The position numbers and the translations under genes are program-made. A model generated the notes under the pieces. It was not told the origin of the DNA, did no database searches, and worked only from the letters and a program-made list of their open reading frames with translations. From assembly GCA_964534745.1 (NCBI GenBank), contig CAZHQW010000006.1:15233-79232 (forward strand): DNA of 64,000 bases, read 5' to 3'. How positions within the stretch are numbered: position 1 is the stretch's first letter; each line of letters begins with the position of its first letter. Below are positions 13,773-61,323 of this stretch, piece by piece. The DNA is from an uncultured Bacteroidales bacterium. GTDB lineage: Bacteria > Bacteroidota > Bacteroidia > Bacteroidales > UBA10428.

Positions 13773-13774
13773 CA

Positions 13775-37764: not shown

Positions 37765-40700
37765 ATGAAAAAAATTGCAAGTTTTATTGTATGTTGGGTA
37801 TTTATTGGCTTTGGTGTCATATTCGCCCAGGACATACAAATCTCTGGGACAATCATCAATGCGGATGATGGTACTGCCCTGCCGGGTGTGTCTGTTTTTG
37901 TGAAAGGTACATCCATAGGGACAGCCTCAGACATAAATGGTGATTATTCTCTAACAGTTCCTCCGGACGCAACCCTTGTTTTCAGTTCAGTTGGAATGAA
38001 AACACAGGAGATGCAGGTGGCCGGACAGACTGTTATTGATGTTAGTTTGGAAACAGAGGTACTTGGTTTGGAAGAGGTAATAGTCACGGCTATAGGTATT
38101 TCGAGGGCAGAAAGAGCCCTGGGATACTCGGTAGCCACGATATCATCTGACGAAACCCTCCAGAAATCAGAACCTGACTTGCTGAAATCACTTGAGGGTA
38201 AAATACCCGGAGTGGATATCAGAAGTACCAGTGGTGCACCGGGTTCTGCTACCCGTATCACTATCAGGGGTAATTCATCATTCCTGGGTGATAACCAGCC
38301 GCTGTTTGTTGTAGATGGCATTCCTTACAGCAATGACCAGTATACTACAACAAGCCAGAGCAGTGGTGGTGGAGCTTATGGTACCAGTCTTTCAACACTT
38401 GACCCGAACGACATTGCCTCGGTATCGGTATTAAAGGGAGCCCCTGCTGCCGCCCTGTACGGATCAAGGGCTAAAAACGGGGTAGTTGTTATTACTACAA
38501 AATCAAGAAGCATAAATCCTTCGAAAAAAGGACTTGAGGTTACGGTATCAAGCTCCGTTAACTGGGAGCAAATATCTAACCTTCCGGAATACCAGAACAC
38601 TTATGGAAATGGCGTTGACTTCGTATATGCCAATGCCAATGGTTCATGGGGCCCCAGATTCGACTCCCGTGATTCCATTAAAACATGGGATATGTACAAA
38701 GATGCTTTTCCTGATATGTTTGGTGATAGTGTGCCATGGGTACCTGATCCCAACAATGTTGAAGGCCTTTTCAAAACCGGACTTGTATATGAAAATTCGG
38801 TTAATATTACAGGAGGAGATGAAAAATCAGGATTTAACCTGACGGCTTCCATGCTGAACAATGACGGGTATATTCCTTATTCGAGCTTTGACCGTTACGC
38901 TATCAGCCTCGGCGGCACAACACTGCTGGCAAATAAATTAAGGGCCGGTGGTACTTTCAGCTACACAACAAGCCAGCAGTCAGGTGGTATATTCGGTAAT
39001 AACCAGGCTGACGATGACAATGCCGCTTCCTCATTTGCCCGTGCATTATGGCTGGGCAGGGCATGGGACTACAGCCTTCCCTATACCGATCCTGTCACAG
39101 GAGGACCCATACAGCATAACGGGCCGGGACAGTTTGACAACCCTATGTGGTCATGGGAACACAACAAGGTTATCACTGACATGGACAGGATTGTAGGTAC
39201 AATAAACCTGTCATATAACTTCACAGACTGGCTGAATGCCAGCTATGAGATTGGAGTAAACACTTTTATTCAGAGAAGGCAACAGATAATAGATAAAGAA
39301 TCAAGAGGATACCAGGGACTGGGTGCTATTATTGATGACGATGTATGGCAGCAGGAAATAGAATCGAACTTCCTGTTAACCTTTAACAAGCAGTTTGGTT
39401 CAGGCATAGATTTCAAAGCCATACTGGGTCACAATGTAAACCAGCAGACACTTGACGAGCAGGCCTTCAGGGGTATACAAATTGTTACTCCCGGTATTTA
39501 TGACCTTGACAATACAAACAGTGTAATCCCCTTTGGCGGTATATATGAACGCCAGAGATTAGTGGGAGCATTTGCAGATGTTACGGTAGGTTATAAAAAC
39601 TTCCTTTACCTGAACCTTACAGGCAGAAATGACTGGTCTTCAACATTGCCGGTTGATAACAGATCTTATTTCTATCCTGCTGCTTCAGCATCATTCATGT
39701 TCTCAGAGCTGCTTGATGTGAATGAAAAAATATTGAGCCTCGGTAAGATAAGGGTTGGCTGGGGTAAGGTTGGAATGGACGCTGATCCTTACAGCATCTA
39801 TACTACTTTTATTAGTAAAGCTGCAGAATTTACCGATGTTGAACAAAAAGCCGGCTATAAATATGCTGCGTTCCCGTTCCTCGGGCAGGCTGCTATGACC
39901 ACACCTGATAGAGGTAACGACCCCGAACTTAATCCCGAGTTTAAAAGTGAATATGAAGTCGGTACCAACCTGGGATTCATTAATAACAGGATTAATGTAG
40001 ACTTTACCTATTACTCAAATAAATGTACGGATATGATATATCCTGTGAGTGTTGCAGCTTCATCAGGAATTACCTCACAGTGGACAAATATAGGGGAGAT
40101 GACTAATAAGGGAGTTGAGGTTGCATTAGATCTGGTACCTATCAGGACTGCCAGCGGCTTTACATGGGACATTCATTCCATATTCACAAAGAATGTCAGT
40201 GAAGTTGTCGATGTATTTGAAGGCGAGCCCCAGGAAGGTGAAGTGGAAAGAACATCATTGTACGGATTATTTGGCGATCCATATATTGTTGCACAGGTCG
40301 GACAGCCTTACGGCGCATTCCTGGGTGAAGTTGACGTAAGGGACGATAATGGAAACTTGCTTATAAATCCGGGTAACGGATTTCTGATAAGATCCAGAAC
40401 ACTAGAAATATACGGAGATCCCAATCCCGATTATAAACTCAGTGTTACCAGTACTTTGTCATTCAGGGGATTATCGGTACGTGCACTTATGGATTATACC
40501 AAGGGAGGTGACGTATATTCATATTCTATTGTTTCATTACTGGGCAGAGGTGTTACAAAAGATACGGAAGACAGGGAACACAGCTTCGTGATCCCCGGAT
40601 ATTACGGTGACCCGAATACTGAGGAACCGCTCCTTGATGCTGACGGTAACGAGATACCGAATATAACACAGGTCAGTATGAACGACCTGTACTTTGGTGA

Positions 40701-40998
40701 ATCGTTTGCAATAAACTCAGCAGGTGAATGGAACGTATATGATGCAACCAAATTAAGTTTAAGGGAAATTGCAGTCGGATATGATCTTCCGAAGAAGCTT
40801 CTGAGCAAGACACCTTTCGGCACGATAAATATCAGCCTGACGGGCAGGAATTTGTGGTTCTATGCTCCGAATATTCCCGAATACACCAACTTCGACCCGG
40901 AAGTTAACGCTTACGGCGCTACGAATGTTCAAGGTGTTGAATATACTATTGCACCCTCAGTAAAAAGATATGGTGTTAATCTTAAGATTACTTTCTAA
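37765..40998 (+). CDS. SusC/RagA-family TonB-dependent outer membrane transporter
   Basis: Signal peptide, CarboxypepD_reg-like domain (ISGTIINADDGTALPGVSVFVKGTSIGTASDINGDYSL), plug (ALGYSVATIS...LEGKIPGV...IRGNSS), 22-strand barrel ending in ...YGVNLKITF. No STN domain. Confidence 0.92.
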   Translation: MKKIASFIVCWVFIGFGVIFAQDIQISGTIINADDGTALPGVSVFVKGTSIGTASDINGDYSLTVPPDATLVFSSVGMKTQEMQVAGQTVIDVSLETEVLGLEEVIVTAIGISRAERALGYSVATISSDETLQKSEPDLLKSLEGKIPGVDIRSTSGAPGSATRITIRGNSSFLGDNQPLFVVDGIPYSNDQYTTTSQSSGGGAYGTSLSTLDPNDIASVSVLKGAPAAALYGSRAKNGVVVITTKSRSINPSKKGLEVTVSSSVNWEQISNLPEYQNTYGNGVDFVYANANGSWGPRFDSRDSIKTWDMYKDAFPDMFGDSVPWVPDPNNVEGLFKTGLVYENSVNITGGDEKSGFNLTASMLNNDGYIPYSSFDRYAISLGGTTLLANKLRAGGTFSYTTSQQSGGIFGNNQADDDNAASSFARALWLGRAWDYSLPYTDPVTGGPIQHNGPGQFDNPMWSWEHNKVITDMDRIVGTINLSYNFTDWLNASYEIGVNTFIQRRQQIIDKESRGYQGLGAIIDDDVWQQEIESNFLLTFNKQFGSGIDFKAILGHNVNQQTLDEQAFRGIQIVTPGIYDLDNTNSVIPFGGIYERQRLVGAFADVTVGYKNFLYLNLTGRNDWSSTLPVDNRSYFYPAASASFMFSELLDVNEKILSLGKIRVGWGKVGMDADPYSIYTTFISKAAEFTDVEQKAGYKYAAFPFLGQAAMTTPDRGNDPELNPEFKSEYEVGTNLGFINNRINVDFTYYSNKCTDMIYPVSVAASSGITSQWTNIGEMTNKGVEVALDLVPIRTASGFTWDIHSIFTKNVSEVVDVFEGEPQEGEVERTSLYGLFGDPYIVAQVGQPYGAFLGEVDVRDDNGNLLINPGNGFLIRSRTLEIYGDPNPDYKLSVTSTLSFRGLSVRALMDYTKGGDVYSYSIVSLLGRGVTKDTEDREHSFVIPGYYGDPNTEEPLLDADGNEIPNITQVSMNDLYFGESFAINSAGEWNVYDATKLSLREIAVGYDLPKKLLSKTPFGTINISLTGRNLWFYAPNIPEYTNFDPEVNAYGATNVQGVEYTIAPSVKRYGVNLKITF

Positions 40999-41017
40999 CT
41001 AAATAACATTAAATATT

Positions 41018-42676
41018 ATGGCTATGAAAAAAATAAAAATCTTTCTGCTAGGAACAATACTATTATTAGCAGGGTGTGAAGATTTTCTTGATATAAACCA
41101 CGATCCTAACAGGCCCTCGGAACCTGCAATTGATCAGTTACTCCCGGGAATAATGTATGACATGGCGGACGATATGTCCATAGGATACGGTAAATTGGGT
41201 TATGCATGCGCAGTATATGTACATCAGCTGACAACAAGACAACCTGAATATGATGATTATAACATTTCAGGGTCTTCGTATGCTGTTACCCAGTATTGGA
41301 AAGACCTGTTTGCCGGTCCGGCAGAGGATCTTAAGCTGCTTATTCAAATGGGAGAAGAAAGCGGCAACCTTATATATGCCGGTATTGGAAAAATAATGAA
41401 AGCCTATCTGTTCAGTATGATGGTAGACTTGTGGGGAGATATACCATATGCCGAAGCAAATACAACCGGTATTACCGAGCCGGCTTTTGATGATGATGAA
41501 CAAATATATACAACATTATTTGCATTAATAGATGAAGGTATTGCAGACATCAACAATACTGAAGCTGAAAATATACTTGTTCCGGACGATGACGATCTTA
41601 TCTATGGCGGTGACACAGACCAGTGGATTAAACTGGCAAACACGCTGAAGCTTAAGATGTACAACCAGGTAAGGCTCGTTTCCATGTACAACCAGTCGGC
41701 AGTTGATGCTTTGCTTGCAGGTGACTTAATCGAACCGGGTGATGATTTCATGTTGCCATTCGGTACTTCGGTGGCACCTGAAAATCGTCATCCTGCTTTT
41801 GTTTCAGAATACGGTGGTTCACAGATAAGCAATTATATAAGCCCCTGGTTTTATGAAAAGATGAGTGGCCAGAATCCTGATATTCTTACAGGAATTGTAG
41901 ATCCCAGGATACCTTACTACTGGTGCAACCAGAAGACCACCGGAGAAGCTCCTGAAAATCCGCCTGAATATAAAGACGGCAATTTCAACACGATCTATTT
42001 CGGATCTACCGGTCCGAACCGTGACCATGCAGGCCGCGCAAGTTTCACAATGATGGGAATATATCCCTGCGGAGGCAAATATGATGACGGCAGCGGCGGC
42101 GGACCCCTTGGCTCTACTGATGGAACAGGAGCTGCCCCGCAGAGGTTCATCACTTATGCCGACAGGTTATTCATAGAAGCCGAACTTATGCAGGCCGGAT
42201 TGGTATCGGTCATCGATGGAGACGACGCCAGGGCAAGACTGGAAAAGGCAATGTATGCTTCCTTTGAACAGGTAGATATGGTTGTGGCTATGGTAAATCC
42301 TGCCCAGTTAGTTCCAAGATTTGACACAGCCTCAACAGATACTGCATATGTCATGGCTGTACTTGCCGAGTATGATAATCCGGCAACTGATGCTGAAAAA
42401 CAAATGGAGATTGTTATGACAGAGAAGTGGATTTCCCAGTGGGGTAACGCATTGGATCAGTATACCGATTACAGAAGGACAGGATATCCCGTGAGGTTCG
42501 ATGCCAATTCAAACGACGGTAAACAGTATCAGGGTGATGAAGGTACCGCTCCGGTCCCGACACAAGAAACAAGGGCTTATCCGCTGTCATTCCCCTATGA
42601 TCAAAATGAAGTTATCCTGAATGATAACTGTACTCAAAAAGTTGTCTCTACATCTAATGTATTCTGGGATAATTAA
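41018..42676 (+). CDS. SusD/RagB-family nutrient-binding lipoprotein
   Basis: Lipobox LLAGCEDFLDINHDPNRPSE typical of the SusD-like_2/RagB group. Immediately downstream of SusC. Confidence 0.85.
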   Translation: MAMKKIKIFLLGTILLLAGCEDFLDINHDPNRPSEPAIDQLLPGIMYDMADDMSIGYGKLGYACAVYVHQLTTRQPEYDDYNISGSSYAVTQYWKDLFAGPAEDLKLLIQMGEESGNLIYAGIGKIMKAYLFSMMVDLWGDIPYAEANTTGITEPAFDDDEQIYTTLFALIDEGIADINNTEAENILVPDDDDLIYGGDTDQWIKLANTLKLKMYNQVRLVSMYNQSAVDALLAGDLIEPGDDFMLPFGTSVAPENRHPAFVSEYGGSQISNYISPWFYEKMSGQNPDILTGIVDPRIPYYWCNQKTTGEAPENPPEYKDGNFNTIYFGSTGPNRDHAGRASFTMMGIYPCGGKYDDGSGGGPLGSTDGTGAAPQRFITYADRLFIEAELMQAGLVSVIDGDDARARLEKAMYASFEQVDMVVAMVNPAQLVPRFDTASTDTAYVMAVLAEYDNPATDAEKQMEIVMTEKWISQWGNALDQYTDYRRTGYPVRFDANSNDGKQYQGDEGTAPVPTQETRAYPLSFPYDQNEVILNDNCTQKVVSTSNVFWDN

Positions 42677-42707
42677 TATTATTAATTAATAAATAAATTT
42701 TAAAGAC

Positions 42708-43592
42708 ATGAAGAAAATTATTTATATAATATTTGCTCTGGTCATCGGCGTGCTTACAACCTGTGATAAAGAGCCGGATGTCAGAATGCCAGAAATGCAG
42801 GATGCGGTTGCTGCTTATCTGAAACTGACAGAGAACTCTTCGCTCTCTGTGGACCTGTACGATTTAGCCGGATTTAGTTTTGAAGCAACTGTCGATGTTT
42901 TATTCGACGATCCCTTTCAAAAACTGGCTGTAGTAGTTGTATTTAACGGCGATTTTACCAAGCAGTATGTAATGACAGATAACATTACATCTGTGCCACA
43001 GACAGTGTCATATACGCTTGATGATATTGCGGCTGTTGTTGACGAGCTTAATGCTCCCGCTGATCTGGTATCAGGTGATGCATTCGTCTTCTTTGTAAAT
43101 ACTACATTGCCTGACGGAACCCTGTTGCCCGGCTATACTGAAAATGGTGATATAGCCTTTAGTTCAACCCTGGCCAATGCGCTAACCGGACTTAAGGGAG
43201 CTACATTCGATATTGATATTCCTGTTCCCTGTCCGTTCAGCATAGATGACTGGCCGGGAACATATGACTGCTTTGATCTTGATTATGCGTCGGAAAACAC
43301 AACAGCAGAAGTATTTCTTGACACCGAAGTTGAAAACGGATTGAAAGTATATGGAATGTATTCAAATTACGCTGAACCCGATACATTCAGAATTGTCTTA
43401 AATCCTGCTGACCTTTCAGTCAGTTTTGAATCACAGACAATTTCACAGGATTTGTGGGGATATGGACCTGCTACTGCCGATGCAGGTGGCGGTTCATTCA
43501 ACACATGCGACTTTACAATTAGTTATAATCTTGATGTTTGTGTCGGGGCCGGGTGTTTTTCAACATTTCATGTTCTTCTTGTAAAACAATAA
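42708..43592 (+). CDS. Hypothetical surface lipoprotein (SusE/F-position)
   Basis: Lipobox GVLTTCDKE. Third gene of the SusC/D locus. No family recognised. Confidence 0.5.
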   Translation: MKKIIYIIFALVIGVLTTCDKEPDVRMPEMQDAVAAYLKLTENSSLSVDLYDLAGFSFEATVDVLFDDPFQKLAVVVVFNGDFTKQYVMTDNITSVPQTVSYTLDDIAAVVDELNAPADLVSGDAFVFFVNTTLPDGTLLPGYTENGDIAFSSTLANALTGLKGATFDIDIPVPCPFSIDDWPGTYDCFDLDYASENTTAEVFLDTEVENGLKVYGMYSNYAEPDTFRIVLNPADLSVSFESQTISQDLWGYGPATADAGGGSFNTCDFTISYNLDVCVGAGCFSTFHVLLVKQ

Positions 43593-43610
43593 TAAACTTT
43601 GCAATAACTT

Positions 43611-43638
43611 AAAAAGCGAACCTCCGGGTTCGCTTTTT
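43611..43638 (+). terminator. Rho-independent terminator
   Basis: AAAAAGCGAACC-TCCG-GGTTCGCTTTTT: a perfect 7-bp GC-rich stem (12 bp counting A:T), a tetraloop and a T5 tail. Confidence 0.7.
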
Positions 43639-43685
43639 AAGTATATAGCTAACTGCTATTTTCTCACTTGATTTTACTATTTAGC

Positions 43686-46079
43686 GTGAAGCGGATCGTA
43701 TTGATACCAGTGCTTTTATTTATGCTTGCCGGCACAAAGAATTTAAACGGACAGGTAAGCGGTTCAATTGAGCCATACCTGCCGCCGGTGGATGTTATTG
43801 AGTCAAACGGTCCTGAACCAGGCTATTTCTTTATATCCTCAAGAGTGCTGAATACCCCTGATGCATACCATTTTGTTGCAATAATTGATAATTACGGCAC
43901 CCCCATTTACTACAAGAGAAATTACCTCGGCAACGGGGGCTTTCGTCTGCAGAAAAACGGGTATCTTACTTTCAGGCCCAATTGGCAGGGTTTCGGTTAT
44001 TTTGTTCTTGACAGCTCCTATAACCGCATAGACACGCTGTACATGCTTAACTACGATGCCAACCAGCATGATTTTAAAATATCTGAAGACGGACATGCAC
44101 TATTTATCGGGAACTATTACAGGAACGTTGATATGAGCCAGATTGTCGAAGGCGGAGATCCCGATGCCAGAGCCATGGAAGCTATTATCCAGGAATTTGA
44201 CAGCACAGGGAACCTTGTTCTGGAATGGAGAAGCTGGGAGCATTTTGATATTCTTGATGCCAACGAAGCCTCTGTCAACCTTAAGGCTTCAATTGTTGAT
44301 TATGTTCATCCTAACGGTATCGAGTTTGATTCCGATACAAGTATACTTCTCTCTTCACGCCACCTTGACGAGATTACAAAAATTGACAGGAGAACAGGCG
44401 AAATAATATGGAGGCTCGGGGGCAAGAAAAACCAGTTTGGCTTTATAAACGATACCATAGGGTTTTCAGCACAGCACAGTATTGTTAAACTTGATAACGG
44501 ACATATACTGCTTTTCGATAATGGCACCTATCATACACCACAGTTTTCCAGTGCAGTTGAATATGCTATCAATGAAGATTCGATGGAAGTCACATTAATA
44601 AAAAGATACCGGCCGGACTTTGATGTTTATGCCTCCTTTGGCTGCAACACCCAGAAACTTGAGGGAGGAAACATATTGCTCGGACTGGGAGAGACATCCC
44701 CATCAATTATTGAACTCCGCCCCGATAATTCAGTTGCCCTGATATTGGACTTTTCAGATTATGCCTCATCCCTGCTTATAACGAAGAAACCCTGGAAGAC
44801 AAACCTGTTTACCACAGGTGCCGATACAATCACGTTCCCCAAATATGAATATATGACATATTATTACCTGCTGAAATTGTCCAATAAATCGGACAGGCCT
44901 CTGGATATTACAGGATATTCTACCCATACAGAATCATTTTATATTGATGAAGATTTTCCCTTTACGATTCCTGCCGGTGGTGATACAATTATTGATGTAG
45001 CCTTCAATCCGCTTACCGAAGGCTATATTACAGACATACTTACTATAAATTCCGATATAGTAAGTGACACCCTCATACAGAGGGTTGCTCAACAAGTATA
45101 TCTTTCGGGGACAAGCGACGATTTCAACCCTCCTTTGGTGAATATATCCCCTTCGGATGAAGGCGGGGTGCCGCTTGACACAAAAGTATTTATTGAGTTT
45201 AACGAACCTGTAAGATATATTGATAATTCTGAAATTGACTATACAAATATAAAAACACTGCTTACTTTTAAGAAGACCGATGCCCAGGGTGAGGATATCG
45301 ACTTTATCGTTACGGTTAGTACAGATAAAAAACTGATAACTTTAAAACCTGTATTATCCCTGGAAGAGGAGCAGGTCTATTTTGTGGCTATAGCAAAGGG
45401 ACTGGAAGATTATTCTGACAACCCGGCCGACTCTCTCAGTGCAAGCTTTACGACAGGAGACATAGAGCCCCCCCGGGTGCAGATTTATCCGGCTGACGGA
45501 TCCACAGGTATCCCGACAATACTTGAGGCCACGGCCGTTTTTGATGAGCCGGTAAGGTTAACTGACAACAGGGAAATCGATGATACCAATGCTGACTCGG
45601 TAATCACATTAAAGGAGTCAGCGGGACAGATGAGCCATGTTCCCTTTGATGCAACAATCAACGCCGGGAAGACTGAAATAACAATTGTTCCTGATTCAGA
45701 ATTAGAACCTTACACGGGCTATGAAATAATAATCAGAGATGTGGAAGACTACAGCAATAACGCACTGTCAGGCTATATTGCAAGGTCATATTTTACCACG
45801 GGTCCATCGGAGCAAACACAGGTTATTCCGGATGGTACAGAATCGCAGTATATAATATATCCCAATCCCTGCAAAGGGAAATTTACCATTGATTTTGGCA
45901 GCGTGGATCCAAGGATAATAAAAGTTTACAATTTTTCCGGAAGGTTGATCTGCAAGGAAATCTCTTATGGCATGATGCAAGCCATTGGTTTGAAGGGCCT
46001 GCCCCAAGGCATATACTTTGTTGAAATAATCCTGTCCGATACCCCTGGAAAGGTACTGTTGAAAGTCATTAATGAATAG
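43686..46079 (+). CDS. Arylsulfotransferase (ASST)-like beta-propeller protein with 2 SbsA-Ig/Big_5-like domains and a T9SS C-terminal sorting domain
   Basis: DYVHPNGIEFDSDTSILLSSRHLDEITKIDRRTGEIIWRLGGK and QHSIVKLDNGHILLFDNG match the ASST family pattern. Tandem PP(L/R)V..(S/Y)P.D...(V/I)P...FxEPVR Ig-like domains. CTD YIIYPNPCKGKFTIDF...GIYFVEII at 45846-46076. The GTG at 43686 gives MKRIVLIPVLLFMLAG; the ORF track starts at TTG 43668. Confidence 0.75.
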   Translation: MKRIVLIPVLLFMLAGTKNLNGQVSGSIEPYLPPVDVIESNGPEPGYFFISSRVLNTPDAYHFVAIIDNYGTPIYYKRNYLGNGGFRLQKNGYLTFRPNWQGFGYFVLDSSYNRIDTLYMLNYDANQHDFKISEDGHALFIGNYYRNVDMSQIVEGGDPDARAMEAIIQEFDSTGNLVLEWRSWEHFDILDANEASVNLKASIVDYVHPNGIEFDSDTSILLSSRHLDEITKIDRRTGEIIWRLGGKKNQFGFINDTIGFSAQHSIVKLDNGHILLFDNGTYHTPQFSSAVEYAINEDSMEVTLIKRYRPDFDVYASFGCNTQKLEGGNILLGLGETSPSIIELRPDNSVALILDFSDYASSLLITKKPWKTNLFTTGADTITFPKYEYMTYYYLLKLSNKSDRPLDITGYSTHTESFYIDEDFPFTIPAGGDTIIDVAFNPLTEGYITDILTINSDIVSDTLIQRVAQQVYLSGTSDDFNPPLVNISPSDEGGVPLDTKVFIEFNEPVRYIDNSEIDYTNIKTLLTFKKTDAQGEDIDFIVTVSTDKKLITLKPVLSLEEEQVYFVAIAKGLEDYSDNPADSLSASFTTGDIEPPRVQIYPADGSTGIPTILEATAVFDEPVRLTDNREIDDTNADSVITLKESAGQMSHVPFDATINAGKTEITIVPDSELEPYTGYEIIIRDVEDYSNNALSGYIARSYFTTGPSEQTQVIPDGTESQYIIYPNPCKGKFTIDFGSVDPRIIKVYNFSGRLICKEISYGMMQAIGLKGLPQGIYFVEIILSDTPGKVLLKVINE

Positions 46080-48207
46080 AGAACCTTATAAGTATTTGCG
46101 TGTCTTTTATGCTGCAAGTTTTCCGGTAATCGGATTGTTACTAATCATTACAATAAAAAGTCCGGGCCAGGTTGCTGACGGCAGTGACCTTCTTCAGTAT
46201 ACCAGTCCCATTAACGGTTCAGCATACGTTACCAGGGAAAGTTCCATAATAATAAGGTATTGTAAGCCACTATGCAGAGAATCTGTAACCGATTCAACCA
46301 TAATAGTCACCGGCTCTGTAAAAGGCAGTTACATGGGCAAAATACATTTATGCAGCGATGAAAAAACATTGGTTTTCGAACATCCCGATCCTTTTAAAGT
46401 TTCAGAAAGAATTACTGTAGGCGTACGTGATGGTTTATATACGACAACCATGGATAAGATTCCCGGATTTGAACTTTCCTTCCTTGTTTCGGACAATAAG
46501 AATAATTATAGCCGTATGGATAACGGGAACAAAAATGCAGCTAGTCATGAATATCCGGAAATAAACAGCCATAAATCAACATTTAATGATTATCCCGAAG
46601 TATATTCACTGATAAATGATGAACCTTCGGCCGGATACTACTTCCTTGAAAAAAACTATGTTGGTTATTGTTATATTATGATTATCGACAACTTTGGAAT
46701 CCCAATATTTTACAGGATCCTCGAACATAATGCCCATAACTTTTCCCTTCAGCCTGCCGGATACCTTTCATATTATATCGAGCATGAGAGAAGCTATGCC
46801 ATACTTGACAGCCAGTATAATCATATTGATACGTACAGCATGAAAAACGGGTATGATGCTGACAGCCATGAATTTATATTGCTGGCTAATGGCCATTCAT
46901 TTATGATAGCATACGATCGCCAGCTTATTGAAATGGATAAGGTGGTAGAAGGCGGTGACCCCGATGCAACGGTAGTCGGACTGGTAATACAGGAACTTGA
47001 TGAAGATCAGAATGTTATATTTCAATGGAGAAGCTGGGATCATTTCAGTATACTTGATACTGATGATTCCGTGGTAGACCTGACATCGCAATATGTTGAT
47101 TATGTACACGGGAATTCCCTGGATATTGACTCCGACACATCCCTCCTATTATGTTCCAGGAACCTGAACGAGGTAACAAAAATCAACAGGCAGACAGGCG
47201 ATATAATATGGCGCATGGGCGGCAAACATAACCAGTTCACCTTTATTGATGACAACAGGGGCTTCGCCATGCAGCACTCAGTAAAGAAACTGGAAAACGG
47301 CAATTTAATTCTCTTTGATAACGGAATAATAGGTACGGCTGAGTATTCGAGAGGCGTCGAATATGAACTGGATGAGACAGATTATACTGTACATCTCATT
47401 AAGGAATTTAAGCACGATTCAAATGTTATGTCCCTGGTTATGGGCCATATACAAAGATTACCAAAAGGTAATACTCTCCTGGGGTGGGGCAAGAACCTTG
47501 GAAATTATGTCTGCACAGAGTATAGCTCTGACGGCGCAGTAGTTAATGACATATATTCGGATGATGACGTAAAACCCTACCGGGTGTGTAAATTCGGCTG
47601 GGATCCGGGAATAATAGAACTGGACAGGGATACTCTTTTATTTGATGCCATAAAACCCTATACGAGTGACACCAGGGAAATAAGAATATTCAACAGAACA
47701 GGTGAAAATATAATAATTAACGGCTATTCAAGGGGCAGTGCCCCCTTTTATACGGCAACTACCTTCCCGATAGTGATTCCGCCATATGACAGCCGCGTTC
47801 TGGAGATCAAATTCGTCCCTTTTCAAAGCGGCGAGTATAACGATGTGATAACTATTTACTCGGACGGACTGTCAGCCATTGGCGAGACACAAAGAATTGC
47901 AGTCCAGTTTGCCATAAAGGGAGCCTCTTCCTGGGATGCTTCCCATATAAAAGGCGTATTGTCCGACCAGAATAAAGAATTTCAGCTATACCCCAATCCG
48001 GTCACCGGCAAACTGACAATATACAATACCGGTAACACTGTTTATCTTGCAGTAATGGACCTGCAAGGGAGGGTCCTGATATCAGAAAAAATCCGTAATA
48101 GCGACAAGACTGAAATAGACTGCTCCGACCTTAATCCCGGGGTATATATGCTGGAGTTAACTGAAGGTTCGGGTTCAAAACATTCCGCCAGGTTTATTAA
48201 GAAATAA
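46072..48207 (+). CDS. ASST-like beta-propeller paralog with N-terminal Big_5-like domain and T9SS C-terminal sorting domain
   Basis: DYVHGNSLDIDSDTSLLLCSRNLNEVTKINRQTGDIIWRMGGK and QHSVKKLENGNLILFDNG. CTD FQLYPNPVTGKLTIYN...GVYMLELTEG at 47980-48204. The start overlaps the upstream stop (ATGAATAG). Confidence 0.75.
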   Translation: MNREPYKYLRVFYAASFPVIGLLLIITIKSPGQVADGSDLLQYTSPINGSAYVTRESSIIIRYCKPLCRESVTDSTIIVTGSVKGSYMGKIHLCSDEKTLVFEHPDPFKVSERITVGVRDGLYTTTMDKIPGFELSFLVSDNKNNYSRMDNGNKNAASHEYPEINSHKSTFNDYPEVYSLINDEPSAGYYFLEKNYVGYCYIMIIDNFGIPIFYRILEHNAHNFSLQPAGYLSYYIEHERSYAILDSQYNHIDTYSMKNGYDADSHEFILLANGHSFMIAYDRQLIEMDKVVEGGDPDATVVGLVIQELDEDQNVIFQWRSWDHFSILDTDDSVVDLTSQYVDYVHGNSLDIDSDTSLLLCSRNLNEVTKINRQTGDIIWRMGGKHNQFTFIDDNRGFAMQHSVKKLENGNLILFDNGIIGTAEYSRGVEYELDETDYTVHLIKEFKHDSNVMSLVMGHIQRLPKGNTLLGWGKNLGNYVCTEYSSDGAVVNDIYSDDDVKPYRVCKFGWDPGIIELDRDTLLFDAIKPYTSDTREIRIFNRTGENIIINGYSRGSAPFYTATTFPIVIPPYDSRVLEIKFVPFQSGEYNDVITIYSDGLSAIGETQRIAVQFAIKGASSWDASHIKGVLSDQNKEFQLYPNPVTGKLTIYNTGNTVYLAVMDLQGRVLISEKIRNSDKTEIDCSDLNPGVYMLELTEGSGSKHSARFIKK

Positions 48208-48910
48208 ACACTGTATTTATCAGGGAATTGTAATATTCCACAATCATCTTGAGATCAGGCATCTTATTTATCTTAAGACTATTTGACTTGATAAATGTCA
48301 TTATTGCTGAAGAATAGTCTTCAAAAAACCTCATGAACTTCTTTTTATTGTTGCCAACCAGCATTGTCTTTTTGCCTTCCACCAGGTAGAGGTCTTCCTG
48401 GATATAATTATGATCAATAGCTCCGTATGCCCCATATTTTATATCACTTTCAGGCTTTGGCCTGTAAGAAAAGGTTTTTAACAGTTTCACCTTCCCTTCA
48501 TATAATAGCTGCGCTATACCGAATAACTTCGAGTCTGCTGCAATTAAATTAAGGTTGACATACCTTTGATTCACACCCGCGTCATCAACCCATGAAAATT
48601 CTTTTATCCTGTATAGATCCAAAAGCTTCACCTCTCCGGAAAACTGTATCTCGAGGTTGTTACTTTTAAGATCATACTTGACAGGATAGTTTTTAATTGT
48701 CCGGTCCGATATAAGGGTAAAACTGCCGTTGTGCCACTGATCATCAAGGTAATAGGATTCATTATATCCTGTTTCCTTGGTTTCAAAATTTACAATTACT
48801 TCGTAGGGTGTGCCCAATATAGTAAAATCGTTCGGCGACCATTGTGAAAATATGCCACTGGTAAAAAGAAAAAGCAACAATCCTTGTAAAATCCAATTCT
48901 TCATGCTCAT
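48197..48910 (-). CDS. Hypothetical secreted protein
   Basis: Signal peptide LLLFLFTSGIFSQ. Its 3' end overlaps the convergent ASST-like gene by 11 nt. No family recognised. Confidence 0.45.
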   Translation of the reverse strand: MSMKNWILQGLLLFLFTSGIFSQWSPNDFTILGTPYEVIVNFETKETGYNESYYLDDQWHNGSFTLISDRTIKNYPVKYDLKSNNLEIQFSGEVKLLDLYRIKEFSWVDDAGVNQRYVNLNLIAADSKLFGIAQLLYEGKVKLLKTFSYRPKPESDIKYGAYGAIDHNYIQEDLYLVEGKKTMLVGNNKKKFMRFFEDYSSAIMTFIKSNSLKINKMPDLKMIVEYYNSLINTVFIS

Positions 48911-49086: not shown

Positions 49087-52000
49087 ATGAATAAATTCTT
49101 TGTTTGCATATTCATCTTTCTTTTTTTACAGGCTCATATTTTATTTTCCCAGACCCGCGGCATATCAGGAAAAGTTATCAGCTCCGAGGACAGCCTGGGA
49201 CTTCCCGGTGTAACCGTATTAGTAAAGGGCACCGGTATAGGTACTATTACAGATATTGAAGGTAATTACCTGCTTGAAATTTCAGATGAAGCTGACTCCC
49301 TTGTATTCAGCTTCGTAGGCATGCAATCGCGTGTGGTAGGTGTGTCAGGTAAAAACATAATAAATGTTACATTAAGTCCTCAGTTATATGAAGTAAATGA
49401 AGTGGTTGTCACTGCGCTGGGAATAAAACGGGCGAGCAAGGCTCTCGGTTATTCTGCTACAAGTGTTTCAAGCAAGGACCTGACCGAGGGAAGGGACAGA
49501 AGCATGCTTAACTCGCTCCAGGGAAAGGTTGCGGGTGTTAATATCAGCTCCGCTTCGGGTGCTCCCGGTGCTTCGTCAAGGATACTGCTTCGCGGGATAT
49601 CAACTCTGGGAGGTTCGAACCAGCCTCTTTTTATTATTGACGGCGTACCTGTTAACAACAGCTTTACAGGCAGCACCTCCATCAACGGAGGCACTGACTT
49701 CGGCAATAAGATTAACGATCTTAATCCAGATGACATTGAGAACATATCTATACTTAAAGGGGCTTCCGGTTCGGCACTTTATGGGTCAAGGGCCGCCAAC
49801 GGTGTAATAATAATCACTACCAAAAAGGGCGAGCAGCTTAAAGAAAAAAAATCTGAAATTACGGTCTCAAGTTCAGCAAGATTTGAAGAGCCGTTGCGGA
49901 CAGTGAAGTACCAGAACGAATTCGGACAGGGGGTGTACGGAGATGCTGTCAACTACGAAAACATGAGCTGGGGTCCGGCATTCGATGATAAGCTGCACTA
50001 CTGGGGCTACGAGGTAGATAATACGCTCAGGGTCAAACCTTATATCGGACTTGCCAATAATGTCAGGGAATTCTTCGATACAGGCGAAAACTATAGCAAT
50101 TCCATCTCCATATCAGGCGGCAATGAACAGACGACATACTATATATCTTACTCAAATATCATGCATGACGGTATATTTCCGACAAATTCAGACAGCTATA
50201 ACAGGCATACACTCTCAGCCAGGGGCACTCACATAACTTCATCACGGCTGAGCAGCTCCTATTCGATAAACTACATAAAAAAGAACAACAAATCCGTTCC
50301 GACCGGACAGGGTGAAAACTCTGTTTACAACCAGGTAATGCAAACACCAAGGGATATTAGCCTGCTGGAGCTTGAAGATATCGACAGTAAATGGAATAAC
50401 ATTGACAATTATTACTCTTTATATACTGTAAATCCTTATTTTATCCTCAAGAGAAACGGGAATACAAACAACGAAGACAGGGTATACGGAAGCATTGACA
50501 TTGATTACATAATCAGCGGGCCTCTTTCACTTAAGGCGAGGCTGGGAGGAGATGTTTCAAATGAGCAGTTAAAACAATGGCGTGCCGTTATCGAACCGGG
50601 GGGCAATAATGAGTTTTCTGCCATATATGAACCGGGCAGCGTAGGTGAGGGATCAAGTTACGTAATGCAGCTGAACAGCGATATCCTGCTGAACTATAAT
50701 AAGGAATTCGGGGATTTCGCAGTTGATGCCATAATAGGCCATAACCTGAACCAGAGAACAGGAAAAAGCATATCGGCTTCGGTAAATAATCTTACAATAC
50801 CGGGGTTCTTCCAGCTTAAGAACTCGTCCGAAACTCCCTTTGCCAGCGAAAGCTACGTGAAACGCAGACTTATTGGTGTCTTTACCAGCCTCGATTTGTC
50901 CTATAAAAGCATACTGTTTGTCACCACGACGGCAAGAAATGACTGGAGCTCAACCCTGCCCCTTGAAAACAACTCATTCTTCTATCCCGGGATAAGTGCT
51001 TCTCTTATATTTACCGAATTATTTCCTTCGGTCAGGAAACGCTTTCCATACGGCAAGCTTAGGGCTGCACTGACCAGGGTAGGTAACGATGCCCCTGTTT
51101 ACAGTATACACTCCGTATTTGTTACAGGAGGCCACTCGGACGGGTACGGATATTTGAGATATCCTCTGCCAAACGGTGTGAACTCATATGAGGTTAGTAA
51201 TCTTATAGGAAATGAAGAGCTGAAGCCGGAGCTCACTACCGAGTTTGAAGTGGGTACCGACCTGAGATTCTTCAATAACCGAATAGGTATCGATTTATCG
51301 TATTATGATAAAAACACTACAAATCTTATCTGGCCGGCGCCGCTGCCATCTTCGTCGGGATATACATCAAAGACTGTCAACCTGGGCAAGATGACCAACA
51401 AGGGTGTCGAAGCCCTGCTTAACCTCACTCCGGTTCAGCATGGCCGCCTCCAGTGGGATATATCATTTAATTTCACTAAGAACCATAATGAGCTTGTGGA
51501 GCTGACAGAGGGACTGGACAGGATTGAAATAACCGGATTAGGTGTTGAAGGGGGACAGCAGATAAATTTTATTGCCAAGCCGGGACGGACCGTTGGCATA
51601 TTTGAAGGACGTGAAGCAAAACGTGATGATCAGGGCAGGATTGTGGTGGATAATACGGGACTTCCTGTGGCTGCGGATTCACTCGTCGAATACGGGGACA
51701 GGGAGTACGATTTTATTGCCGGTGTCAATACTAAGCTGTCATGGAGAGGCCTGTCAATATCGGGTACAGTCGACATAAGACAGGGAGGAATTATGTATTC
51801 AAAGACAAAGGAGATCTCAGTGTGGGCAGGTACCGTACCCATTACCCTGTATAATATGAGAGAACCTTTTATCATACCCAATTCGGTATATGAAATAAGG
51901 AGAGACGAGAATAATGAACCGGTATACGCCGAGAATACAATTCCCATAGATGCGGTTCACCTGGGTGATTACTGGGATAACGGAGGCACTGAGATGGATG

Positions 52001-52269
52001 GCCATGTTTTCATTGACAAATCATATGTAAAGCTGAGGGAAGTTATTGTATCATATACCTTTCCTGGAAAAATGATGGACAGGCTGCCGATAGAAACATT
52101 GCAGCTTAGTGTAATAGGAAGGAACCTGTTGCTGTGGACACCTGAAGGCCAGTATTATATTGATCCCGAACTTACAACTTTCGGAAATGATCTGGAGGCT
52201 GACTTTGGTGAATTTGGCGCACAGCCTACAGTCAGAAGCGTTACTTTCAGCATCATGTTTACCTTTTGA
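49087..52269 (+). CDS. SusC/RagA-family TonB-dependent outer membrane transporter
   Basis: ISGKVISSEDSLGLPGVTVLVKGTGIGTITDIEGNYLL, plug ALGYSATSVS...LQGKVAGVN...LRGIST, C-terminal ...VTFSIMFTF. No STN domain. Paralogous to 37765-40998. Confidence 0.92.
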   Translation: MNKFFVCIFIFLFLQAHILFSQTRGISGKVISSEDSLGLPGVTVLVKGTGIGTITDIEGNYLLEISDEADSLVFSFVGMQSRVVGVSGKNIINVTLSPQLYEVNEVVVTALGIKRASKALGYSATSVSSKDLTEGRDRSMLNSLQGKVAGVNISSASGAPGASSRILLRGISTLGGSNQPLFIIDGVPVNNSFTGSTSINGGTDFGNKINDLNPDDIENISILKGASGSALYGSRAANGVIIITTKKGEQLKEKKSEITVSSSARFEEPLRTVKYQNEFGQGVYGDAVNYENMSWGPAFDDKLHYWGYEVDNTLRVKPYIGLANNVREFFDTGENYSNSISISGGNEQTTYYISYSNIMHDGIFPTNSDSYNRHTLSARGTHITSSRLSSSYSINYIKKNNKSVPTGQGENSVYNQVMQTPRDISLLELEDIDSKWNNIDNYYSLYTVNPYFILKRNGNTNNEDRVYGSIDIDYIISGPLSLKARLGGDVSNEQLKQWRAVIEPGGNNEFSAIYEPGSVGEGSSYVMQLNSDILLNYNKEFGDFAVDAIIGHNLNQRTGKSISASVNNLTIPGFFQLKNSSETPFASESYVKRRLIGVFTSLDLSYKSILFVTTTARNDWSSTLPLENNSFFYPGISASLIFTELFPSVRKRFPYGKLRAALTRVGNDAPVYSIHSVFVTGGHSDGYGYLRYPLPNGVNSYEVSNLIGNEELKPELTTEFEVGTDLRFFNNRIGIDLSYYDKNTTNLIWPAPLPSSSGYTSKTVNLGKMTNKGVEALLNLTPVQHGRLQWDISFNFTKNHNELVELTEGLDRIEITGLGVEGGQQINFIAKPGRTVGIFEGREAKRDDQGRIVVDNTGLPVAADSLVEYGDREYDFIAGVNTKLSWRGLSISGTVDIRQGGIMYSKTKEISVWAGTVPITLYNMREPFIIPNSVYEIRRDENNEPVYAENTIPIDAVHLGDYWDNGGTEMDGHVFIDKSYVKLREVIVSYTFPGKMMDRLPIETLQLSVIGRNLLLWTPEGQYYIDPELTTFGNDLEADFGEFGAQPTVRSVTFSIMFTF

Positions 52270-52296
52270 TAGTTAAGAGCATTGTTAATAAAAAAT

Positions 52297-53820: not shown

Positions 53821-53826
53821 AGAAGA

Positions 53827-54492: not shown

Positions 54493-54502
54493 AACGGATA
54501 AA

Positions 54503-55087: not shown

Positions 55088-55126
55088 GACATTATGTTAT
55101 TGAATAAAACTGAAAATTAGTGCCGT

Positions 55127-58315: not shown

Positions 58316-58323
58316 TATATTTG
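58316..58323 (+). promoter_or_regulatory. -7 box (TATATTTG) upstream of cysC
   Basis: Exact TAnnTTTG match. It overlaps the ORF-track TTG start at 58321, which argues for the ATG at 58348. Confidence 0.45.
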
Positions 58324-58347
58324 CAACTCCGGATAATTTGCAACAGA

Positions 58348-58923: not shown

Positions 58924-58926
58924 AAT

Positions 58927-59832: not shown

Positions 59833-59900
59833 GAGGGACAGCGTCCCTTCACAATTAATAATTTGCGATTGAGTTTTGACATAAAATTATCCAAATAGAA

Positions 59901-61248: not shown

Positions 61249-61323
61249 CGGGATGTAGCTCAGCCTGGTTAGAGTACGCGTCTGGGGGGCGTGGGGCCGC
61301 GAGTTCAAATCTCGCCATCCCGA
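61249..61323 (+). tRNA. tRNA-Pro (anticodon GGG)
   Basis: Hand-folded cloverleaf. Acceptor CGGGATG/CATCCCG, D-arm GCTC-AGCCTGGTTA-GAGT, anticodon arm CGCGT-CTGGGGG-GCGTG (U33, GGG, G37), T-arm GCGAG-TTCAAAT-CTCGC, discriminator A. CCA is not encoded. Confidence 0.85.

Follow-up and report, generated by a model that had tools for sequence, protein, structure and literature searches.

A SusC/SusD importer operon and a pair of secreted arylsulfate sulfotransferase (ASST)-like proteins lie next to each other in the window analyzed here, a 64,000-nucleotide stretch of DNA from an uncultured Bacteroidales bacterium. We hold, with somewhat better than even confidence, that these are two separable modules that have been kept side by side in one Bacteroidales lineage. 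The first (37765–43642) would be a regulator-less importer of the BT2264 superfamily, comprising SusC, SusD and a surface lipoprotein and forming its own transcription unit. The second (43687–48207) would be a Cpz4/AssT-family pair that is exported by the T9SS and then either anchored at the surface or released.

A preliminary description of the locus had proposed a PUL-like system built around the ASST cargo. That proposal survives in part: the adjacency persists in several diverged Bacteroidales, but the SusC-SusD-lipoprotein triad is autonomous, and approximately 70 of 80 ASST loci lack SusC/D. ASST family membership, the catalytic residues and a gene order that recurs in other Bacteroidales loci, the points on which the proposal could have failed, were all confirmed. 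Our literature search found no paper describing a SusC/D locus with ASST-like T9SS cargo.

The importer unit

All five ORFs of the locus were found on the + strand where they had been placed. SusC1 (37765–40998, + strand) is a SusC/RagA-type TonB-dependent transporter with an N-terminal carboxypeptidase-regulatory-like domain, a plug and a barrel. In profile searches its TIGR04056 score was 583 bits (cut-off 368), and it matched CarbopepD_reg_2 (PF13715) and Plug (PF07715); as previously noted, no STN domain was matched in Pfam/NCBIfam. BT_2264 (5fq6_B) aligned with SusC1 over its full length (E = 3.7e-141). SusD1 (41018–42676, + strand), a SusD-like_2-type lid lipoprotein, matched PF12771 (2.8e-48) and PF12741 (4.5e-35), as well as SusD homologues in the PDB, BT_2263 among them (2e-13). 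The third gene, Lipo294 (42708–43592, + strand), encodes a predicted surface lipoprotein with the lipobox LTTC and Cys19 followed by DKEPD. It matched no family in a profile search of Pfam and NCBIfam. Two β-sandwich domains in tandem make up its AF2 model (pLDDT 84), in which no enzyme-like fold was seen; Foldseek returned generic FnIII/Ig matches alone, none of them a specific match to a solved structure.

The window holds a second SusC/SusD locus, whose SusC2 (857 bits; 34% identical to SusC1) begins the order SusC-SusD-221 aa-194 aa, as in BT2261-64. Judged by score and gene order, this second locus is the true BT2261-64 orthologue and SusC1/SusD1/Lipo294 a paralogous three-gene version.

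The SusC-SusD-lipoprotein triad is an autonomous, widespread three-gene operon. It is found across Bacteroidota, usually with no adjoining enzyme gene: a lipoprotein of ~290 aa follows SusD in loci L086–L112, and at 17 metagenome loci the same order gives way to tRNA synthetases or other unrelated genes. Sister lineages of equal SusC/D divergence (L086, L087 and L092) are without ASST genes. The importer would take up an oligomeric nutrient by a TonB-powered pedal-bin mechanism and, by analogy with BT2261-64, is probably expressed constitutively.

The ASST-like pair

ASST-A (43668–46079, + strand) and ASST-B (46072–48207, + strand) each combine an ASST propeller with Ig domains and a T9SS type-A CTD. 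In ASST-A, a signal peptide is followed by a six-bladed propeller (aa ~38–370), an ASH-like Ig domain, two Big_5 Ig domains and the CTD (aa 730–803). Its true start is probably GTG 43687, since the gene calls of relatives use that start; it gives a protein of 797 aa whose signal peptide begins MKRIVLIPVLLFMLAG. In ASST-B, the signal peptide precedes an Ig domain (aa ~40–140), the six-bladed propeller (aa ~175–512), a further Ig domain (aa ~515–620) and the CTD (aa 639–711). The two share 39% identity over 438 residues and appear to be an anciently duplicated pair.

Both are ASST-family six-bladed propellers by profile, predicted fold and conserved catalytic residues. The motif blocks from which the family had been recognized, DYVH(P/G)N...SR...IIWR.GGK and QHS...FDNG, occur in the translation of each ORF. 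Pfam matches were PF05935 (2e-28), PF14269 (1.6e-20) and Big_5 (4e-20) for ASST-A, and PF14269 (2e-22) and PF05935 (3e-22) for ASST-B. The assignment of both as T9SS cargo was likewise borne out, with PF18962 (3e-10 and 7e-14, respectively) and TIGR04183 (33 and 51 bits; cut-off 23) above cut-off. With phmmer, Cpz4 (9kf4) matched ASST-A at E = 6e-27 and ASST-B at 1.4e-33, and it was also the top Foldseek match (9e-25) to the AF2 model of ASST-B (pLDDT 87), followed by E. coli AssT (2e-13).

Do these propellers retain the machinery of sulfuryl transfer? A 2026 review lists H252, H356, N358, R374, H436 and T501 as the AssT active site (PMC13426309). Profile alignment placed AssT H356, R374 and Q435-H436 at ASST-B H346, R363 and Q401-H402, and the common DYVHxN motif placed N358 at N348; the equivalents in ASST-A are H214, N216, R231 and H270. 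Both ORFs retain the sulfo-histidine and three residues that bind the sulfuryl group; for H252 and T501, no counterpart was mapped in either. Across 78 homologues, H346, N348 and H402 are invariant, R363 is at least 90% conserved, and ~20 further positions are invariant.

Most likely, the pair transfers sulfuryl groups by a ping-pong mechanism that is independent of PAPS. The conserved histidine (H270 in ASST-A, H402 in ASST-B) would be sulfurylated by a sulfate ester donor, and the sulfuryl group, held by H214/N216/R231 or H346/N348/R363, would then be passed on to a hydroxyl of an acceptor, or possibly to water. The leading candidate substrates are sulfated phenolics, or sugar hydroxyls, on which Cpz4 acts.

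The fold might instead serve a different chemistry, either net sulfate-ester hydrolysis for sulfur scavenging or non-catalytic binding, but we judge this improbable. The conserved sulfo-histidine and its H/N/R cradle, together with the ~20 other conserved positions, favor retention of the family's catalysis over a purely binding role. On the other side, sulfate-activation genes lie nearby, an orphan relative (L166) has genes of the Na+/sulfate-symporter family and for phosphosulfolactate synthase within 9 kb, and large tandem arrays suggest that substrate recognition has diversified. Net hydrolysis would have a parallel in Campylobacter AstA, which is called an arylsulfatase and is a putative member of the ASST family. 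The physiological donors of ASSTs are in general unknown (PMC12809581).

A terminator between the modules

A hairpin of the intrinsic-terminator type (43607–43642, + strand) follows Lipo294 and consists of an A-tract, a 16-bp perfect stem, a 4-nt loop and a T-tract. Its earlier description as strong is apt: it folds at -27 kcal/mol (z = -8.1), and none of 200 shuffles folded as well. A hairpin with a differing loop sequence stands at the equivalent position in L001, L002, L081 and L163, and unrelated hairpins do so in L044, L165, L013 and L012. Triads that have no ASST genes (L086, L087, L092, L093, L101 and L112) also carry one downstream. Indeed, a hairpin (-18 to -29 kcal/mol) closes every triad examined, and its sequence differs among triads. 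Because triads end in a strong terminator whether or not ASST genes follow, the hairpin here is the triad's own terminator, predicted to close the SusC1-SusD1-Lipo294 transcription unit.

The start of ASST-A lies only ~45 nt beyond the hairpin, a gap too short for a typical promoter, and a search upstream of ASST-A found no TAnnTTTG -7 box. ASST transcription may thus need read-through from SusC1, and transcription from SusC1 to the ASST genes may be joint. PUL operons often contain internal attenuators.

Conservation of the adjacency

An A-type and B-type ASST pair follows SusC-SusD-lipoprotein in the clade of the window (L001, L002, L081–83 and L163/164). The same adjacency occurs in L165, with ASST-B at 50% identity and ASST-A inverted, and in L044, at 32–39% identity. 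In L012, the accompanying SusD falls in a different clade; in L013, the pair stands with an unrelated SusCD-lipoprotein set that occupies the same site on the chromosome, flanked by DcuC and the SusC2 operon. Despite rearrangements, the pair and SusCD-lipoprotein keep company with the BT2261-64 orthologue and cysDN in several diverged Bacteroidales. The adjacency of ASST and SusCD is more persistent than chance neighbors would give.

The family at large presents a different picture. It comprises 8,244 clusters at 50% identity (E ≤ 1e-3), or 4,741 at 1e-10 and 1,570 at 1e-30, and species genomes contain at least 590 of its loci. Seventy-eight loci contain 162 ASST ORFs, mainly as tandem arrays, and no other neighbor family recurs in more than six of these loci. 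Of the 80 loci examined, approximately 70 hold ASST genes as orphans or in tandem arrays, with SusC/D absent within 10 kb; SusC/D adjoins ASST genes in only five.

These observations bear on the idea of a single PUL-like system, in which surface-anchored ASSTs would desulfate or trans-sulfate an extracellular sulfated aromatic or glycan and SusC1/SusD1/Lipo294 would import the product, the hairpin being a mere attenuator that sets a high ratio of SusCD to enzyme. The same-strand adjacency across diverged Bacteroidales, which has outlasted the ASST inversion in L165 and the apparent SusCD swap in L013, speaks for it, as do the short gap after the hairpin, in which no consensus promoter was found, and the use of a sugar hydroxyl by Cpz4 (PMC13426309). 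We nevertheless regard it as unlikely. In most lineages, the close sisters L086 and L087 included, the triad stands on its own; the terminator is retained in all lineages examined; most family members have no SusCD nearby; a B-type relative (L008) adjoins HTCS-like and tricorn-like genes instead, as named from N-terminal sequences only; and no regulator links the genes. A self-contained importer operon, and ASSTs that usually occur without an importer, suggest that the two may not work together. Functional coupling between them is plausible, but that the ASST product is handed over to the neighboring SusCD seems somewhat doubtful; any such hand-over would most likely proceed via terminator read-through, given the ~45 nt to ASST-A.

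Genes around the locus

In profile searches of ORFs in the window, no glycoside hydrolase, lyase, esterase, sulfatase or peptidase turned up near the locus, nor any other enzyme-like gene beside the ASST pair, and no SusR, HTCS or ECF/anti-sigma genes were seen from ~20 kb to 62 kb of the window, in agreement with the preliminary description. The large ORFs scanned within the first 16 kb are genes for phosphate transporters, an ankyrin-repeat protein and V-type ATPase subunits. Convergent with ASST-B, and overlapping its 3' end by 11 nt, is orf237 (48197–48910, - strand), a secreted protein with a signal-peptide-like N-terminus that matched nothing in Pfam or NCBIfam. In the closer relatives it is found together with the ASST pair, in the equivalent convergent position (L001, at 70% identity; L081/L082; L163/L164; L165).

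A cysC-cysD-cysN cluster (58321–61184) lies 10 kb downstream of the ASST pair. It could belong to an extracytoplasmic sulfation relay, in which cytoplasmic CysDN and CysC would make PAPS for an exported sulfated phenolic carrier and the ASSTs would then sulfate surface or extracellular acceptors, e.g., the cell's own glycans or lipids, much as caprazamycin biosynthesis proceeds in two steps, from Cpz8/Cpz6 to Cpz4. In L044, L045 and L165, cysDN(C) is near ASST and SusCD genes, and L045 has ASST-cysC-cysD-cysN on one strand. Tang et al. reportedly found in 2013 that the natural donor of Cpz4, the closest characterized relative, is a PAPS-derived aryl-type sulfate. Even so, we consider the relay very improbable. 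In L087, cysND adjoins an ASST-less triad, so the cys linkage may be merely inherited gene order; cysC is preceded by a TATATTTG -7 box of its own; the scanned ORFs yielded no PAPS-dependent sulfotransferase, type III PKS or exporter; and cys genes were not seen near most family members in other phyla.

Comparison with known systems

In the chitin utilization locus of F. johnsoniae, a SusC/SusD pair adjoins ChiA, a T9SS-CTD enzyme that works extracellularly, which is a precedent for the single-system reading. The enzyme there is a CAZyme rather than a sulfotransferase-like propeller. That locus is substrate-induced and its coupling is reported to have been shown genetically, whereas at the ASST locus a terminator lies between the genes and coupling is putative. 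The SusC1 unit resembles BT2261-BT2264 (PUL27) of B. thetaiotaomicron, in which small accessory lipoproteins join a SusC/SusD complex; that locus is constitutive, has neither CAZymes nor a regulator, and has an unknown substrate (PMC8121099).

For the ASST pair, BvASST of Bacteroides (Phocaeicola) vulgatus provides a Bacteroidota ASST that is membrane-tethered outside the cytoplasm; it has been shown to form a sulfo-histidine, what it does physiologically is unknown, and a SusCD context is not reported (PMC12809581). Unlike the pair, it is a classical cluster I lipoprotein encoded by a single gene and is not T9SS cargo. AssT of E. coli CFT073 (PDB 3ELQ, 3ETS, 4P04) has the same six-bladed propeller and performs ping-pong sulfuryl transfer through sulfo-His436, and its H356, N358, R374 and H436 have conserved counterparts in the pair. 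It differs in being a DsbL/DsbI-dependent periplasmic homodimer of the PF05935 "cluster I" type with an N-terminal β-sandwich, and its identity is only ~16% (Foldseek).

The best match in both sequence and fold is Cpz4 (PDB 9KF4/9KF6), an ASST-type sulfotransferase with which Streptomyces sp. MK730-62F2 makes caprazamycin; its profile match was 1.7e-55. Identity to Cpz4 is 22–23% over the whole model (Foldseek), phmmer alignments being higher in the propeller core. At 472 aa and from an actinomycete antibiotic cluster, Cpz4 has neither the Ig domains nor the T9SS CTD of the pair, and its donor and acceptor are pathway intermediates. This closest characterized relative sulfates a sugar hydroxyl, not a phenol (PMC13426309), and it has in common with ASST-A and ASST-B the DYVHxN, SxR, IIWRLGGK and QH motifs and a PF14269-type six-bladed propeller.

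The ASST-like protein pair

An ORF scan of the window recovered, position for position, the five plus-strand ORFs that the preliminary description had placed in this region: SusC1, SusD1, Lipo294, and two genes resembling PAPS-independent aryl sulfotransferases (ASSTs), ASST-A (43668–46079) and ASST-B (46072–48207). The start codon of ASST-A is probably the GTG at 43687 (797 aa), which is where the gene calls of its relatives have it. The DYVH… and QHS… motif blocks by which the family had been recognized were found in both translations, and HMM searches corroborated the assignment: both ORFs passed the curated thresholds of PF05935, PF14269, PF18962, and TIGR04183. Against PF05935 (cut-off 24.2) and PF14269 (cut-off 27), respectively, ASST-A scored 99.9 and 74.1 bits and ASST-B 79.6 and 80.3 bits. 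ASST-A contains two Big_5 domains.

By sequence, the best solved relatives of these proteins are PDB entries 9KF4 and 9KF6 (E = 6e-27 for ASST-A, 1.4e-33 for ASST-B, and 1.7e-55 for a 20-sequence profile). According to Foldseek, the two entries are the apo and reaction-intermediate structures of Cpz4, an ASST-type sulfotransferase from the caprazamycin pathway. For ASST-B, an AlphaFold2 model based on 78 homologues (pLDDT 87, pTM 0.77) comprises an N-terminal Ig domain, the propeller, a second Ig domain, and the C-terminal domain (CTD), in that order. The predicted propeller is borne out by this model, which has six blades like Cpz4 and AssT. Its top PDB matches in Foldseek were again Cpz4 (9kf6/9kf4; E = 9e-25, TM to target 0.63–0.66), followed by eight chains of E. 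coli AssT (including 3elq) at ~2e-13; those below were generic propeller or Ig structures. ASST-A, which is 39% identical to ASST-B over 438 residues, would be expected to adopt the same six-bladed fold.

The active site of AssT consists of H252, H356, N358, R374, H436, and T501, which are conserved in all known ASTs (2026 review, PMC13426309). In a profile alignment, AssT H356 and R374 correspond to H346 and R363 of ASST-B, Q435-H436 (H436 being the sulfo-histidine) corresponds to Q401-H402, and N358 falls on N348 within the same DYVHxN motif; the equivalents in ASST-A are H214, N216, R231, and H270. Retention of the catalytic residues is thus borne out in both proteins for H356, N358, R374, and H436, but the regions of His252 and Thr501 lie outside the profile alignment. 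Across 78 aligned sequences, H346, N348, and H402 never vary, and R363 is conserved at 90% or more; ~20 other positions are likewise conserved, among them H266. From its position only, the invariant H266 (H134 in ASST-A) is a candidate counterpart of His252.

As had been described, both proteins end in T9SS type-A sorting domains (TIGR04183, cut-off 23: 33.4 bits for ASST-A and 51.3 bits for ASST-B; PF18962: 40.5 and 52.4 bits), and both begin with hydrophobic leaders. Because no T9SS machinery gene was found in the window, we can only infer that they are secreted by this route. Four CTD proteins are encoded within 18 kb, namely ASST-A, ASST-B, and two more. One of the latter two, with a CBM9-like domain and a Por_Secre_tail, lies at 61438–62433 (minus strand). 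Given that the profiles, the fold, and the catalytic residues (apart from H252 and T501) all agree, we regard ASST-A and ASST-B as enzymes that probably transfer sulfuryl groups without PAPS and leave the cell through the T9SS.

Size and spread of the family

How widespread are such proteins? An exhaustive HMMER search with the propeller only returned 8,244, 4,741, and 1,570 clusters (50% identity) at E ≤ 1e-3, 1e-10, and 1e-30, respectively. Among the matches listed by a word-indexed search were ~700-aa proteins with an architecture of ASST, ASH/Cep192-like Ig, and Por_Secre_tail; the hosts of these listed matches were Bacteroidales, Ignavibacteria, Calditrichia, and others, and the NCBI name was "aryl-sulfate sulfotransferase." A scan of one genome per species yielded at least 590 confirmed relatives; the best 80 loci comprised 162 ASST ORFs in 78 loci, with arrays of up to six. 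Elsewhere, four ASST genes stand in a row (locus L167) or one stands as an orphan (locus L166). A shared partner gene was sought by all-against-all clustering of 832 flanking ORFs from the best 80 loci: nothing recurred beyond close relatives, and no non-ASST gene family was present in more than six of these loci.

Some family members have two ASST propellers in one polypeptide of 1,000–1,560 aa (P0024, P0140, P0141, and P0142), which is consistent with a pairwise mode of action of the propellers.

A self-contained SusC-SusD-lipoprotein operon

Upstream of the ASST pair, SusC1 (37765–40998, plus strand) matches TIGR04056 with 583 bits (cut-off 368) and TIGR04057 with 53.7 bits; it has CarbopepD_reg_2 and Plug domains as well as the SusC plug signature, and the profile search agreed that it has no STN domain. 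After a gap of 19 nt comes SusD1 (41018–42676, plus strand), a SusD-like_2 protein (PF12771, 165 bits, 2.8e-48). By the adjacency of their genes and by these profiles, SusC1 and SusD1 are an outer-membrane importer of the SusC/RagA plus SusD type. Lipo294 (42708–43592, plus strand) has no family match. Its lipobox Cys is followed by DKEPD, which we take to be an acidic segment of the kind typical for Bacteroidota lipoproteins that are exported to the surface. The predicted structure (pLDDT 84) has two beta-sandwich domains, which points to a binding or scaffold protein rather than an enzyme. An identification with BT2261 or BT2262 was rejected: there was no PDB sequence match even at E ≤ 10, and the Foldseek matches were to generic FnIII/Ig domains only.

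SusC1 has a full-length match to BT_2264 (E = 3.7e-141, 475 bits). Because SusC2, from the second SusCD locus of the window, scores higher (857 bits) and sits in the four-gene layout of BT2261-64, and because Lipo294 has no PDB match by sequence and only generic Ig matches by fold, we regard SusC1 as a paralogue of BT_2264 and not its orthologue. The BT2261-64 locus (PUL27) is constitutive, has neither CAZymes nor a defined substrate, and matters in vivo (PMC8121099); these properties fit a SusC1 without a regulator and without an STN domain.

Directly after Lipo294 lies a hairpin (43607–43642) with a perfect 16-bp stem flanked by an A-tract and a T-tract (-27 kcal/mol, z = -8.1). In a reverse test of the linkage, metagenome contigs were scanned with a SusD1 alignment. 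About 20 loci had enough downstream sequence (SusD identity 37–59%), and all carry the triad of SusC, SusD, and a ~290-aa lipoprotein. Only in the near-identical L083 are ASST genes found downstream. Downstream of the other triads lie genes for tRNA synthetases, further housekeeping genes, a second SusCD (L086), cysN/cysD (L087), or DcuC/FtcD (L092). L086 and L087 group in one SusC/D clade with the window and L044, a diverged relative discussed below; close sister lineages therefore do without the ASST pair. Every triad examined, with or without ASST genes, has an A-tract/hairpin/T-tract directly 3' of the lipoprotein gene (-18 to -29 kcal/mol), and the hairpin sequences are unrelated to each other. 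The hairpin, which the preliminary description had listed between the lipoprotein gene and the ASST pair, is therefore real and is a terminator, conserved at the end of an operon of three genes that is autonomous.

Recurrence of the gene order and the question of coupling

When the proteins of the window were compared by tblastn with the best 80 ASST loci, SusC/D genes stood beside ASST genes in only five (L001, L002, L012, L013, and L044). L001 and L002, from uncultured Bacteroidales MAGs, repeat the whole layout at 66–91% identity: SusC1-SusD1-Lipo-ASST-A-ASST-B-orf237(-)-SusC2-SusD2-Ig-orf194-BNR. The JGI contigs L081/L082 and L163/L164 (62% ASST-B identity) have the same layout. The order in L165 (50%) is DcuC-FtcD-SusC-SusD-lipoprotein-ASST-B-orf234(-)-ASST-A(-)-SusC-SusD-cysD-cysN, and that in L044 (32–39%) is FtcD-SusC-SusD-lipoprotein-ASST-A-ASST-B-SusC-SusD-cysN(-)-cysD(-). 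L012 has SusC-SusD-lipoprotein-orf(-), three ASST genes, and SusC. L013 keeps the flanks, with DcuC upstream and the SusC2 operon downstream at 57–73% identity; between them are a quite different SusC-SusD-lipoprotein and then two ASST genes. Rough NJ trees place the B-type ASSTs from these SusCD-linked loci in one clade, each locus having one A-type and one B-type gene; their SusC/D partners fall into three separate lineages. The combination therefore recurs outside this genome, and not trivially.

Two of the contigs in this comparison call for comment. L012 (CAWDTC010000056.1) is labelled Candidatus Aminicenantes; its first ~15 kb carry Bacteroidota-type SusC/SusD/ASST genes, whose type differs from the seemingly GC-rich, unrelated ORFs past ~15.6 kb, and the contig may be chimeric or its bin mislabelled. 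The closest relative of the B-type ASST of L013, at L008 (2296–9895), has no SusCD beside it and adjoins a 1295-aa HTCS-like gene and a 1084-aa tricorn-protease-like gene, both named from their N-terminal sequences only.

Is the ASST pair functionally coupled to the neighbouring SusCD? The adjacency has been kept through divergence to ~35% identity and has survived both an inversion in L165 and, in L013, what looks like the replacement of one SusCD unit by another. Furthermore, only ~45 nt separate the hairpin from the ASST-A start, and no TAnnTTTG -7 box was found in this gap; ASST expression may thus rely on read-through. Set against these points, a terminator stands between the SusCD-lipoprotein genes and the ASST genes, and both the triad and the ASST family are autonomous. 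The linked genomes also share a single Bacteroidales neighbourhood (DcuC and FtcD upstream, the BT2264 orthologue and cysDN downstream), so common ancestry of the gene order explains much of the recurrence. We consider functional coupling a real possibility, albeit a doubtful one. The preliminary description of one SusC/D locus with ASST cargo holds insofar as the order recurs, but is not supported as to a single unit: the triad is autonomous, with its own terminator, and has sister lineages without ASST genes.

Sulfur genes and promoters

The sulfate-activation genes cysC-cysD-cysN (58321–61184) lie just downstream in the window, and cysDN(C) genes are close to SusCD/ASST modules in four diverged relatives, in varied orientations (L044, L045, L087, and L165). 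An ASST gene is directly upstream of cysC-cysD-cysN in L045; in L087, the cys genes are near the triad and there is no ASST gene. This proximity fits either sulfur scavenging or a relay from PAPS to a carrier to the ASST, similar to the Cpz8/Cpz6/Cpz4 route.

A consensus scan for sigma-70 promoters and terminators gave counts near the shuffled expectation, missed the main hairpin, and was uninformative. As the overall count of TAnnTTTG was also at chance level, we used only positions directly upstream of genes. Such boxes are present at 49044 (SusC2) and 58316 (cysC). Co-transcription of cysCDN with the upstream BNR gene (listed gap, 17 nt) was considered and rejected in view of the consensus TATATTTG -7 box at 58316–58323; because of this box, the true cysC start is probably the ATG at 58348 and not the listed TTG at 58321. 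Together, this promoter box and the L087 arrangement suggest that the cys link may be inherited synteny.

In L166 (GCA_030622635.1), an orphan T9SS ASST at 10001 has within 9 kb of it (449–5290) genes for a phosphosulfolactate synthase (ComA) and for a member of the Na+/sulfate symporter family. This is another, independent pointer to a setting in sulfur metabolism.

Directly after cysN is a tRNA-Pro (GGG) gene (61249–61324). A TATCTTTG box precedes it at 61223, and a strong hairpin (AAAAAAAGGCTGCC...GGCAGCCTTTTTT) comes after it at 61378–61415.

Status as a polysaccharide utilization locus

In agreement with the preliminary description, no CAZyme, sulfatase, peptidase, or PUL-type regulator (HTCS, SusR, ECF/anti-sigma) was found between ~20 and 62 kb, and the scanned ORFs of the first 16 kb are housekeeping genes. 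Without CAZymes or a regulator, and with a terminator ahead of its only enzyme-like genes, the region is not a canonical PUL.

Several neighbours merit description. The gene for a 237-aa secreted protein with no family match, orf237 (48197–48910, minus strand), is convergent with ASST-B, the two genes overlapping by 11 nt at the ASST-B stop; L001, L081, L163, and L165 preserve this arrangement, including where ASST-A has changed place. The second SusCD locus (49087–58303) is the true orthologue of B. thetaiotaomicron BT2264-BT2261, whose order it matches (SusC-SusD-221 aa Ig-like-194 aa). It is followed by BNR1058, a 1058-aa T9SS protein with BNR/Sortilin-Vps10 repeats; both SusCD units of the region thus precede T9SS-exported propeller proteins. 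BNR1058 was considered as a GH74 glycosidase, which would make a real PUL there, and was rejected on its weak, repeat-level matches (~1e-6). Toward the start of the window, a 480-aa protein made up almost wholly of ankyrin repeats (4087–5529; Ank_2, 2.5e-56) is encoded beside genes for PiT and Na/Pi transporters and the operon of a V-type ATPase (9207–17932).

Possible function and significance

The region encodes two proteins with Sec signals, T9SS CTDs, and ASST propellers with an intact sulfo-histidine site, next to a separate SusCD-lipoprotein operon. Once exported and relieved of their CTDs, the enzymes would reside on the cell surface or be released. Catalysis would be a ping-pong sulfuryl transfer in which a donor sulfate ester sulfurylates H270 (ASST-A) or H402 (ASST-B), after which the sulfuryl group would pass to an acceptor hydroxyl or to water. 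The kept A/B pairing suggests either that the two form a heterodimer, where AssT forms a homodimer, or that they differ in substrate specificity. The preference of Cpz4 for the hydroxyl of a sugar (PMC13426309) makes carbohydrates no less plausible than phenols as acceptors. A product may be imported by the neighbouring SusCD, although no result here requires such uptake.

An integrated reading, which we judge unlikely, would join these parts into a surface organosulfate module of an uncultured Bacteroidales lineage, with a T9SS-displayed, Cpz4-like heteromeric pair, BT2264-type SusCD importers, and cysDNC. Such a module would either harvest ester-sulfate sulfur or desulfated aromatics/glycans from sediment organic matter, or sulfate extracellular targets via an exported carrier; the ASST pair would work outside the cell, where PAPS is unavailable. 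In wider terms, the same reading would make ~1,500 T9SS-type ASST-like clusters in Bacteroidota, Ignavibacteria, Calditrichia, and related groups an unrecognized class of extracellular sulfur-cycling enzymes.

The window is an entry point to a very large, unstudied, T9SS-exported, Ig-bearing subfamily that is multiplied in tandem arrays and hosted by sediment and soil bacteria of the FCB group. Were they to transfer or strip sulfate on organic matter outside the cell, they would be relevant to how ester sulfate, a major organic-sulfur pool, is turned over; they might also serve as robust biocatalysts for extracellular sulfation. Even for well-studied PAPS-independent sulfotransferases, the physiological donors, acceptors, and roles are unknown (PMC13426309, PMC12809581), and the Bacteroidales arrangement of ASST, SusCD, and cysDNC provides a concrete genetic system for the substrate question. 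A caution for annotation also emerges: SusC/D genes adjoining those for secreted enzymes do not alone make a PUL. The SusC-SusD-lipoprotein triad of this region stands alone as an operon across the phylum.

Comparison with known systems

A literature search found no paper tying ASSTs to the T9SS or to SusC/D, in line with the preliminary description, which was aware of no characterized PUL-like locus of this kind. SusC1-SusD1-Lipo294 is a paralogue of the BT2261-64 type, whose orthologue is the second locus. ASST-A and ASST-B belong to the ASST superfamily, with Cpz4 as their nearest characterized member. They differ from known enzymes in localization, with predicted T9SS export as opposed to the periplasmic AssT and the lipoprotein BvASST. 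Unlike every characterized ASST, they have flanking Ig domains, and the T9SS-type family to which they belong has a genomic habit of its own, the tandem array.
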